Made by a program: the position numbers. A stretch of DNA of 64,000 nt, from positions 1 through 64,000 of the forward strand of contig CATMOE010000008.1 of assembly GCA_950072105.1 (NCBI GenBank), given 5' to 3'. How positions within the stretch are numbered: the stretch's first letter is position 1; every line of letters begins with the position of its first letter. Positions 24,001-27,000 of this stretch are shown one piece after another. This DNA is from an uncultured Dehalococcoidia bacterium. GTDB lineage: Bacteria > Chloroflexota > Dehalococcoidia > Lucifugimonadales > UBA3495.

Positions 24001-27000
24001 CACCGATGGCTACATCAGGCTGGGTGGCAAGGTCTAGGACACGGAAAAGACGCTCGCTCTACTTGTCCCGGTATCCCCTGGGGGTTGCCATGTGCCCCTG
24101 CAGCAGGTAGGTGGTGGAGTTTCCGATGACCACGGTGGTGACCATGTTGATGTCCTCGGCGATCCCTTCCAGCCCTTCCAGGTCGGTGATAGTCACCTGT
24201 TGCCCCGGCCGAAAAGCGTCCTTGACGACGCCGACTGGGGTTTTACCAGAGCGATGCTCAAGAAGTATGCGCCGGGCCTCCATCAGTTGCCATTGGCGGG
24301 TCCGGCTTCGGGGGTTGTATAGGGCGACGACGAAATCTCCCTGGGCTGCCGCCTTCAGCCGTTGTTCGATGGCCGTCCATGGGGTCAGCAGGTCGCTGAG
24401 ACTGATGGCGCAGAAGTCCTGCATCAAGGGCGCGCCCAGCAAGGCGGCGGCGGCCTGCATGGCGGAGATGCCGGGCACCGTTTCCACTTGAGGGTTGATC
24501 CCGTCCCAATCCAAACCATTTAGCACTTGGAACACCGGGCCGGACATGCCGTAGATGCCGGCGTCTCCCGAAGACACCACCGACACCACCCGACCCGCGT
24601 AAGCCAACTCCACGGCCTTGGACGCCCGCTCAATCTCCTGGCCCAATTCCATGGAGACGAGTTCCTTGCCAGCTAGCAAGTCTCCGGCCTGTTCGATATA
24701 CGCACGGAACCCGACAACGACGTCCGATTCCTCCAGGGCCGACATGGCCGCACCCGTCAAGTACTCAGCCTCGCCGGGTCCTAGGCCAACAAGAAACAGC
24801 TTGCCTTGTTTGTTGTCGTTAGCCACAGAGACACAGAGGCACGGAGGGTTTAGAAGATGAGCCGTTTGATGCCATTTGTTAGCAACCTTGAGTTAAAGTT
24901 CATTAAGAGACCAATTTTCTTGCCGGTGATCTTTAGGTAGGTTAACACTTGGGCCTCGAAGAGGGGATCGTGACGTTCGACACTTTTAATTTCCACCACC
25001 ACCGTATCTTCCACGACGAGTTCGATCCGGTAATCACCAATCTGTTCCCCTTTGTAGGTGAGTGGTATCGGCACCTGTCGTTGATACTGAAGCCCTTGGA
25101 GACCCAACTCGACACATAGGGCTGCCTCGTAGGCGCTCTCGAGAAGTCCCGGCCCCAAATGCCGGTGCACTTCTATCCCACAACCTATGATCCTTTCCGT
25201 AATTTTATTTAACTCTGTGATCTCTGTGTTTCTGTGGCTAATCAAGACTTATCAGCGCCGTAGAACATTCGGGCAACGGCGACGGTTGCGCGGTCGGTTT
25301 TGGTTTTGGTGACTAATAGTTCGGTTGCGGATGAAGCCAATAGGGCGGCGGGTTCGCATACGCCCCAGATTCCCAACAATCTGTGAGGTTCTGGGGAGGG
25401 TGTTGGACCCAGTTCAGAGCCTTCAGGAGGGAACATGGAGTTCAGATCTGATTCGCCGTAGCAGTGGACCGGCACTTGGAGCTTGGCCGCCATCTGTCCG
25501 ATGCCTACTTCGTCGCGCTTTAACTCGGCGGTGGCGATGCAGTTGATGCTGGCCTTAGCCAGGTTGTTATCGCGGAATGTAGTGTCGATCAGGTGCTCTA
25601 GATGTTCCATGGGGACGCCACGGCGGCACCCCAGGCCAACCGCCAAGCTACGAGGCCGATATACCACGACGAATTTGCCGGGCAAGGCATCGGAATAGGT
25701 CTTTTCGCTGGAATGATCCTGGGCCGCCAGGTCGGTGATTACCAGCGCGGCGGCGCATGGGGATTCAGCCAAAGACTGTAAAGATCGGTACACCTCGACG
25801 TTGTCTGGCAACGGCTGGCCGGAAGGCCACCAGCCGGTCTCCCCGGCCTCCTGATATATACCCACCGGCTCTCCGTTTATGGAGATGGCGCTGGCTCTTG
25901 TGACAGTCAGCGGGTCCGCTTCTATCTGCCAGCCGAATTCCTGACCAAGTAAGTCCACGGCCAGGCGTCCGGTCACGTGGGATGCCGAGGTTACGACGGG
26001 AGAAGCGTCCAGGATGGAGGCTACTTCTTGAGCCAGCTTGTCAGCCCCGCCCAGGTGTCCCGAAAGCAGGCTCACGGCGAACCGCCCGGCGTCGTCGACG
26101 CAAACAACGGCAGGGTCACGGTGCTTGTGATCTAGGCATGGCGCCAGCAGCCTGACCGCTGCCCCCACGGGCATGAAAAGCACTAATCGCCGGCACTCTT
26201 GGAAAACACTTTGAACCAGAGGGCGGGCCGGCAGGTCGAAAGCTACTGCGTTATCTTCCTCAACCAAAAAGCGCCGGTCCAGATAAAGGGTCGAGCCGCC
26301 GCCCAATTCGGTGGCAACCCTACGGGCCAGCTCTGCGCCGTTGCGGGAAATAGCGACGATGGCGGTATCGGTCATGGCCTGGTGTTCACTGCCCGCCGCC
26401 GCTGGAGCCCTCCTCCACATCGGAAGACTCCGCCTCGGCCCGGCGGTAGAGGTGGGTGTAGTCGCTGGCATAGAGGTGGGACGACGAGACGCCGTTGGCC
26501 GCAGTGGGGACGTGATGAAGCAGGGCCGGGTCCATCGCTTCGCCAACCATGATTAGAGCCTGCAAGGTGATCTTGGCATCCCTGACCTTGGCGGCAATGT
26601 CGCTAAGGGTGCCCCGAATAATCTTTTCGTCCGGCCAACCCACCCGGTAGACAACAGCCACCGGAGTGGATTCAGTGTAACCCGCTTCTAATAACTGGCG
26701 CACCACGGTGAACATCCGCGTGATACTTAAAAATATGACTAGCGTGGAACCATGAGCCGCCAGGTCTTTCAGTTGTTCTCCGGGTGGCATGGAGACACGG
26801 CCTTGTGCCCGGGTCATGATCACCGTCTGGGACCCGCCGGGTATGGTCAATTCGACTTTCAGCCGGGCGGCCGCCGCGAAGGCCGCGCTTACCCCCGGTA
26901 TGATTTCGTAATCTACCTGGGCCTCTTCCAAGATTCGCATCTGTTCCAGGACGGCCCCGTAGATTGAAGGGTCGCCGCTCTGGATGCGAGCCACGGTCTT

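Follow-up and report, generated by a model that had tools for sequence, protein, structure and literature searches.

What brought the gene for a small candidate nuclease to lie between the arms of a palindrome at an operon junction, and what ties it to similar hairpins that occur without any gene, are the questions raised by the cbiG/cbiH junction of an uncultured Dehalococcoidia bacterium (genome G000). Within the window, the whole 64,000-nucleotide stretch of DNA that was analyzed, profile matches and an open reading frame place a GxxExxY (PDDEXK_3) gene of 131 aa (g902) at 24850..25245 on the minus strand. The upstream host gene is cbiG (25242..26375, minus strand; CbiG_N, CbiG_mid, and CbiG_C matches), and the downstream host gene is cbiH/cobJ (24059..24826, minus strand; TIGR01466, 300.9 bits). 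In the sequence, the 5′ arm (25213..25241, minus strand) displays three tandem CAC(A/G)GAG-type units, and the 3′ arm (24819..24846, plus strand) is its inverted copy; read by eye the arms are 28-29 nt long with three tandem units each, while a repeat finder reports 20 nt at 24819-24838 and 25222-25241, 95% complementary and spaced by 383 nt. The GC content of g902 is 48%, compared with 60-62% in the neighbor genes. The cbiG stop codon abuts the 5′ arm and is overlapped by the TTG start codon of g902, and the same arm encodes the first residues of the open frame. At the far end, the apparent cbiH start is a GTG at 24826, inside the 3′ arm and without a purine-rich ribosome site; the window copy may be held in place, since its arm supplies this start codon. 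The cbiH of G002 keeps a ribosome site and an ATG that are lost in the window, and G010 is arranged as in the window.

The source genome holds a second such unit (C1:154917-155366), whose protein is 55% identical to g902. As the survey's finding had stated, both genes lie between inverted arms. These are the only two long pairs of well-matched arms in the genome. Contigs assembled from two public DNA runs hold the cbi unit intact. Short "joined" arm-to-arm forms in the reads are hairpins located elsewhere in the genome (one of them that of C61), which map via the arms, and a 428-nt skip in X15 was set aside for a short side of only 30 nt. RNA-library contigs span g902, without thereby showing transcription.

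The protein scores far above the thresholds of both of its families, with 140 bits against a cut-off of 22 for PF13366, the sole domain matched (there is no GIY-YIG domain), and 144.9 bits against a curated cut-off of 35 for TIGR04256. At an E-value of 0.001, 22,052 clusters (50% identity) match this family, which a 2012 survey, in the part available to us, lists with unknown function (PMC3424549). Based on a structure model (pLDDT 96.6), g902 is predicted to have the PD-(D/E)xK core fold, and PD-(D/E)xK nucleases dominate the top of both structure-search lists, led by Cas4, lambda exonuclease, and AddAB. Along with Hjc, these enzymes resemble g902 in core fold and in the E...D...ExK...QxxxY motifs; the best Z, 7.7, is tied with restriction enzymes, and therefore no nuclease subfamily can be assigned. 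No Foldseek match reaches an E-value of 0.001, and no sequence relative of g902 with a solved structure was found. The motifs of g902 comprise E36, E75, E85-x-K87, and Q99xxxY103, corresponding to E36, D75, E85, K87, Q99, and Y103, which are nearly invariant in the family alignment; the QxxxY motif is a marker of RecB/Cas4-type nucleases. Position 75 is Glu in g902 and Asp in 94 of 96 homologues and in 60 of 61 A-type loci, and the contigs of two public runs do not differ there, as judged from counts of differing letters. Through this change from Asp75 to Glu, g902 may be a weakened copy. The gene is under purifying selection, with dN/dS of 0.03-0.32 in 16 pairs. Two-domain homologues of 275-295 aa (P0001, P0002, P0003, P0005, P0007, and P0014) possess a second GxxExxY domain without the ExK motif, and this degenerate second active site suggests that the single-domain proteins may act as a dimer.

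Inverted arms generally flank GxxExxY genes, in agreement with the survey. Among 133 homologous loci, two of which were dropped for short flanks, 114 of 131 have inverted arms that score above the 99th percentile in a control set of 270 shifted windows, with the direct orientation passing in only 28 of 131; the arms are found at 86 of 96 loci within the host's family and order and at 28 of 35 from a wider genome collection. At least six arm classes (A-F) can be distinguished, which we defined from these same loci. On a quick tree of 129 proteins, arm class changes 16 times versus 62.6 times when shuffled, with one change each for classes C, D, and F and two for B. Each protein clade thus carries its own arm sequence, and in some cases several arm-specific clades are coresident in one genome. 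The gene is present in 103 of 200 genomes of the host bacterial family (TIGR04256 search), at one to four genes per carrier genome, with the same few junctions recurring. Insertions lie in unrelated operons, broken and truncated gene copies occur, and the gene is oriented with its upstream neighbor at 61 of 68 loci by heuristic strand calls. In some units of classes B, C, and F, each side is a complete hairpin. In three D-type units (L202, L204, and L209), the unit is followed by a partial repeat of the 3′ part of the gene or by a second arm, resembling a tandem partial duplication, and at the G010 cbi site (L005) a tandem duplicate of the 5′ arm and of the first codons of the gene lies upstream of the full unit.

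The survey had also reported about 21 gene-less copies of the hairpin between genes. A total of 21 short arm pairs, with looser arms, was picked by hand from the list of arm pairs, and a strict two-arm detector recovered 12 gene-less hairpins in G000 versus none in each of five shuffles. The loose single-arm pattern alone gave 348 matches versus 283-315 in shuffles and is not above chance, so the signal is carried by the pairing of the arms. A looser hairpin detector (45 versus 17-37 in shuffles) was likewise not above shuffles and was dropped. The hairpins are intergenic, mostly close behind a stop codon, with loops that are mostly AT-rich, and the outer ends of units mostly read TT(A/C)(A/G)C. 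At 17 of 18 G002 loci, an arm or a hairpin is found at the orthologous G000 position, indicating that the hairpins are old and stable at orthologous sites; the two genomes also form a reciprocal pair, with the cbi site full in G000 and the C101 site full in G002. No clear difference was seen in seven G000/G002 pairs compared for coordinated arm change, and concerted evolution of the arms is therefore not proposed. A search of the G126, G197, and G086 regions for a close clean/filled pair at a dispersed A-type hairpin found none, and the A-type hairpins shared among these three close genomes differ mainly in unit number.

The abundance of these repeats follows the resident gene. Exact matches to the A-arm and B-arm motifs (matches, not copies) were counted in the 200 family genomes, with the cassette's own arms included, kin among the genomes not independent, and genes typed for the fetched part only, such that the groups are genomes with an A gene and no B gene seen and the reverse. 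Genomes with an A-clade gene (n = 29) have a median of 35 A matches and 1 B match, those with a B-clade gene (n = 27) have 1 A and 36 B, and gene-less genomes (n = 97) have 1 A and 0 B. The same is true within genera: the median of B matches in genus g2 is 39 with the gene (n = 39) versus 2 without it (n = 13), and that of A matches in genus g21 is 67.5 with an A gene (n = 20) versus 10 without (n = 19). An arm is thus amplified in genomes holding its cognate gene. As exceptions, 15 of the 97 gene-less genomes have at least 10 motif matches; one of these, which is 91% complete (G060), has 187 B-arm matches and no TIGR04256 match, where the gene was possibly lost or left unassembled, or another enzyme is at work; and 9 of the 29 A-clade genomes, with only part of their genes typed, also have at least 10 B matches. 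In G138, the dispersed arms differ in subtype from the arms of the resident gene; no gene remnants were found near 30 arm loci of this genome, and their loops look mutually unrelated by eye. At these loci (L273-L302), one arm is conserved and its partner decayed; read along the strand that begins with the conserved arm, the loop and the flanks are often strongly enriched in G and T. The many hairpins of high-copy genomes may stem from deletion or from copying in trans.

How the unit comes and goes is best seen at a site in genus g21, between neighbors that we take to be gcvT-like and soxB-like genes. The junction is readable in 37 of 40 genomes, 20 with full units and 15 clean, the remainder being one internally deleted unit and one decayed relic with a fragment of the gene as its loop (p < 0.004); none of the 37 junctions holds an intact gene-less hairpin. 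Because of the 15 clean junctions, insertion needs no prior hairpin, unless all of these alleles are secondary losses. The survey's view of the hairpin as the empty, pre-insertion form of the unit is not supported at this best-sampled site, where the unit alternates with a clean junction without hairpin (15 of 37).

Sequence exchange at the g21 site is evident from L024 and L036, whose flanks are 93% and 92% identical and whose genes are 63% identical, with saturated synonymous sites and both arms different; identity stops at the outer end of the left arm. The genes of L023, L027, and L029 share 81-86% identity, yet the hosts do not fall together by their flanks. Congruence between the gene tree and the flank tree is rejected in four AU tests (p = 0.039, 0.0002, 0.004, and 0.0003) for groups picked after the trees were seen. 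In the tree of flanks, full alleles are scattered among clean ones, with 10 changes versus 9.3 when shuffled, five of them forced by strong branches, in a scoring that takes one full allele at a contig edge as short. Lineages have therefore exchanged whole cassettes at one and the same operon junction. Ordinary homologous exchange of alleles, with no cutting involved, could also produce this tree pattern. Filled and clean alleles differ in the spacer that separates the arm from the following start codon, and TTAA often stands at both ends of the unit.

The cbi junction of the window, readable at 46 of 52 loci, presents two full units, two hairpins, one half arm, and 41 alleles without an A arm. 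The corresponding tree, in which six rows were labeled armless without reading their junction, needs four changes for five occupied alleles, two of them forced by strong branches, and does not separate repeated gain from repeated loss. G002 has the hairpin and G010 the full unit at this site, just as had been described. The loop of the G002 hairpin, which has a different arm variant, aligns to the 3′ end of g902 (p = 0.004 as DNA and 0.046 with a protein profile; p = 0.146 against the G010 gene), as does the G054 cbi loop (p < 0.001), and a G171 loop contains a clear gene remnant. These targeted same-site tests were run after a pooled remnant test that gave p = 0.49 for G002 cbi and 0.015 for G054. 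No remnant was detected in the G000 C101, G001 fdh, and G002 fdh loops, whose sites are occupied by a full unit in a relative. With remnants in three of six loops tested, some hairpins are products of internal deletion, bearing out for those copies (G002 cbi, G054 cbi, and G171) the caveat, raised with the original claim, that empty copies could arise in this way. At the fdh site, G001 (flank 93% identical) and G002 have hairpins of one arm variant and G010 has none, also as first reported, and the full unit of G000 belongs to another variant, its protein clustering with same-site proteins of genera g3 and g14. A foreign full unit thus sits where both congeners have a hairpin, and hairpin sites may be open to invasion.

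The observed association, covariation, replacement, and decay are probably best explained by a selfish PD-(D/E)xK nuclease-repeat cassette in which the enzyme cuts at the arms and host recombination completes the replacement of alleles; we infer binding, cutting, and causation from sequence comparison. Such a cassette of ~0.42-0.5 kb would consist of an arm, the GxxExxY gene, and the inverted arm. The candidate nuclease, probably a dimer, would recognize the tandem arm units, probably in single-stranded, hairpin, or cruciform DNA, and would cut at or near the arms. As the enzyme has no evident joining activity, host recombination would finish the job: a cassette-bearing allele arriving by horizontal transfer would overwrite a clean, hairpin-bearing, or differently occupied allele in a homing-like replacement, and repair of cuts at arms would seed hairpins just behind stop codons. 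With no evident promoter of its own, the cassette would ride on operon transcription. The earlier proposal that gene plus arms constitute a mobile unit is upheld by patchy presence, exchange between lineages, and the tie to a dispersed repeat, with its nuclease-driven part staying putative.

A more specific and rather doubtful version holds that GxxExxY proteins are sequence-specific nucleases that target their own arms when these are folded into a hairpin. While in the loop, the gene would keep the arms ~400 nt apart and so spare its own allele; deletion would re-create the short hairpin target, which would then be cut and overwritten by a cognate cassette from another lineage. If true, the element would itself make and scatter the target of its homing cycle, as a minimal mobile element without a transposase and with many enzyme-target pairs readable from flanking DNA.

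It is unlikely, if not to be dismissed lightly, that the system is instead domesticated, the hairpin and its enzyme being kept for the host, e.g., for restricting incoming single-stranded DNA (as SsnA) or for local recombination, with cassette swaps being ordinary allele exchange under diversifying selection. The purifying selection on the gene and the long residence at orthologous sites would suit a host function, for which SsnA offers a precedent in the accessible part of PMC11893778, and a search with g902 as the single query matched no virus or phage and retrieved only 8 plasmid records. A host function would sit poorly with a gene present in about half the family (103 of 200 genomes), with broken and truncated copies and insertion at unrelated operons, and with several arm-specific clades in one genome. 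Domestication is in any case compatible with the selfish cassette and does not exclude it.

Decidedly improbable is a cut-and-paste element with terminal inverted repeats, of which the GxxExxY protein would be the transposase and the hairpins the MITEs. The unit does possess terminal inverted repeats and an IS-like anatomy, its arm and enzyme covary, TTAA is often found at both ends at the g21 site, and copy number follows the cognate gene. However, across 21 hairpins, direct repeats in the flanks were not found at any of the offsets tested (2-mers agreed in 4 of 21 at most), and among the outer tetramers of 55 units, 6 non-palindromic cases match inverted and 0 match directly, such that no target duplication was detected in either set, whose copies are old. 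Furthermore, carrier genomes hold one to four genes at the same few junctions, and the loops of dispersed copies look unrelated to one another by eye. With no target duplication detected and a changed spacer, replacement by recombination fits better than cut-and-paste.

Very improbable is the related notion that the arms are the ends of a MITE moved by an unrelated transposase, with the nuclease gene as cargo of the loop. Other palindrome families do use the same junctions and nest in one another, and some genomes have repeats without the gene, but arm type goes with nuclease clade, repeat counts within genera follow the cognate gene, and the only two long well-matched arm pairs of G000 both enclose GxxExxY genes. 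As the survey had noted, no Y1 (HuH) transposase was found in G000; PF01797 has no match in this 92% complete genome, which was searched for the Y1 and GIY-YIG families only. Least credible of all is an RNA-level element whose arms pair in the transcript (as a stabilizer, terminator, or processing stem) and whose protein is an RNase, as the start of most hairpins close behind a stop codon and the presence of tRNA-splicing endonucleases low in the fold list might hint, given that arm mismatches on the sense strand are equally G-T and A-C (220 versus 216), a lack of G-U bias that argues against an RNA stem, that Rfam has no match for the element, and that the whole unit as DNA folds no better than shuffles (z -0.92).

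Returning to the selfish cassette, several known systems share parts of its design. Free-standing homing endonucleases occupy fixed intergenic sites with full, decayed, and clean alleles, have gene trees discordant with those of their surroundings, and are lower in GC. The cassette displays full, relic, and clean alleles at one site, with a gene tree discordant with the flanks. Homing endonucleases usually have no terminal inverted arms or dispersed cognate repeat, unlike the cassette. Bacterial MITEs and IS elements have inverted ends, deletion derivatives, and intergenic location, as the cassette does. The likeness in inverted ends and gene-less deletion derivatives extends to the examples in the available portion of PMC3733652; the difference lies in a 131-aa nuclease rather than a DDE transposase and in that no target duplication was found among the copies analyzed. 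The same portion describes TIRtrons, with inverted repeats whose gene-less copies form families (PMC3733652).

Closer in operation are two enzyme-repeat systems. In RAYT/REP (REPtrons and REPINs), one or a few enzyme genes have cognate, coevolving palindromes dispersed behind genes, as far as the accessible text of PMC8266576 covers, and the cassette likewise has cognate repeats that flank the gene and are dispersed in carrier genomes. RAYT is an HuH (Y1) transposase, in contrast to PDDEXK_3 here, and the arms here have no GTAG or CGTC tag and belong to a cassette exchanged between lineages at fixed sites. In Ssn/SRM (SsnA-NTS), as described in the accessible part of PMC11893778, hairpin repeats stand on both sides of a small single-domain nuclease gene and are dispersed as well, enzyme-repeat pairs are numerous, and a joining activity is not known. 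That enzyme is a GIY-YIG protein rather than a PD-(D/E)xK protein, and each SRM is a hairpin by itself, while in A-type units each side is usually half of a long palindrome built from tandem units of 8-9 nt; the main text of the paper does not contain the term GxxExxY. By analogy, the cassette would work like Ssn/SRM and RAYT/REP or TIRtrons and, because the enzyme fold differs, would be a member of neither Ssn/SRM nor RAYT/REP. A bioRxiv paper, in the part available, mentions GxxExxY as a domain beside a reverse transcriptase that another tool called cas4. Among main texts outside most subscription journals, no published description of a GxxExxY gene with dispersed arms was found, and this family of selfish elements is apparently undescribed.

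Such a cassette would provide a first testable function for one of the larger uncharacterized nuclease families, with the candidate substrate of each protein readable from its own flanks and clades A to F as built-in specificity controls. It would also add a third enzyme fold to the two already paired with dispersed palindromes, HuH (RAYT) and GIY-YIG (Ssn), bearing on how such repeats arise and spread and accounting for an abundant class of intergenic repeats in the host bacterial family. Should these enzymes of 130 aa turn out to cut specific sequences, they would be candidate tools.

Other palindromes occur at or near the same sites. Hairpins starting with CGTC(A/T)TTCC are present at the cbi junction of G061 and G110 (L129 and L149) and at the fdh junction of G042 and G061 (L309 and L310); they resemble the NTS/SRM motif in the accessible part of PMC11893778, and the same junctions hold GxxExxY units in other genomes. 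In the source genome, a small GIY-YIG frame (C38:565-780, L303; 135 aa open) lies directly behind an amidase-like gene, has GTCATTCC-type hairpins after it, and may be an Ssn-like unit. Where G002 (L044, C1:76629) has an A-type hairpin, G000 has an unrelated CCCTCACCCC-type palindrome, near position 600 of C72. Near 17300 of L231 (reversed strand) and near 14400 of L230, A-type hairpins have a different inverted-repeat element, apparently with a CTAA duplication, inserted within their loop or beside them, and the palindrome families of genus g21 nest in one another.
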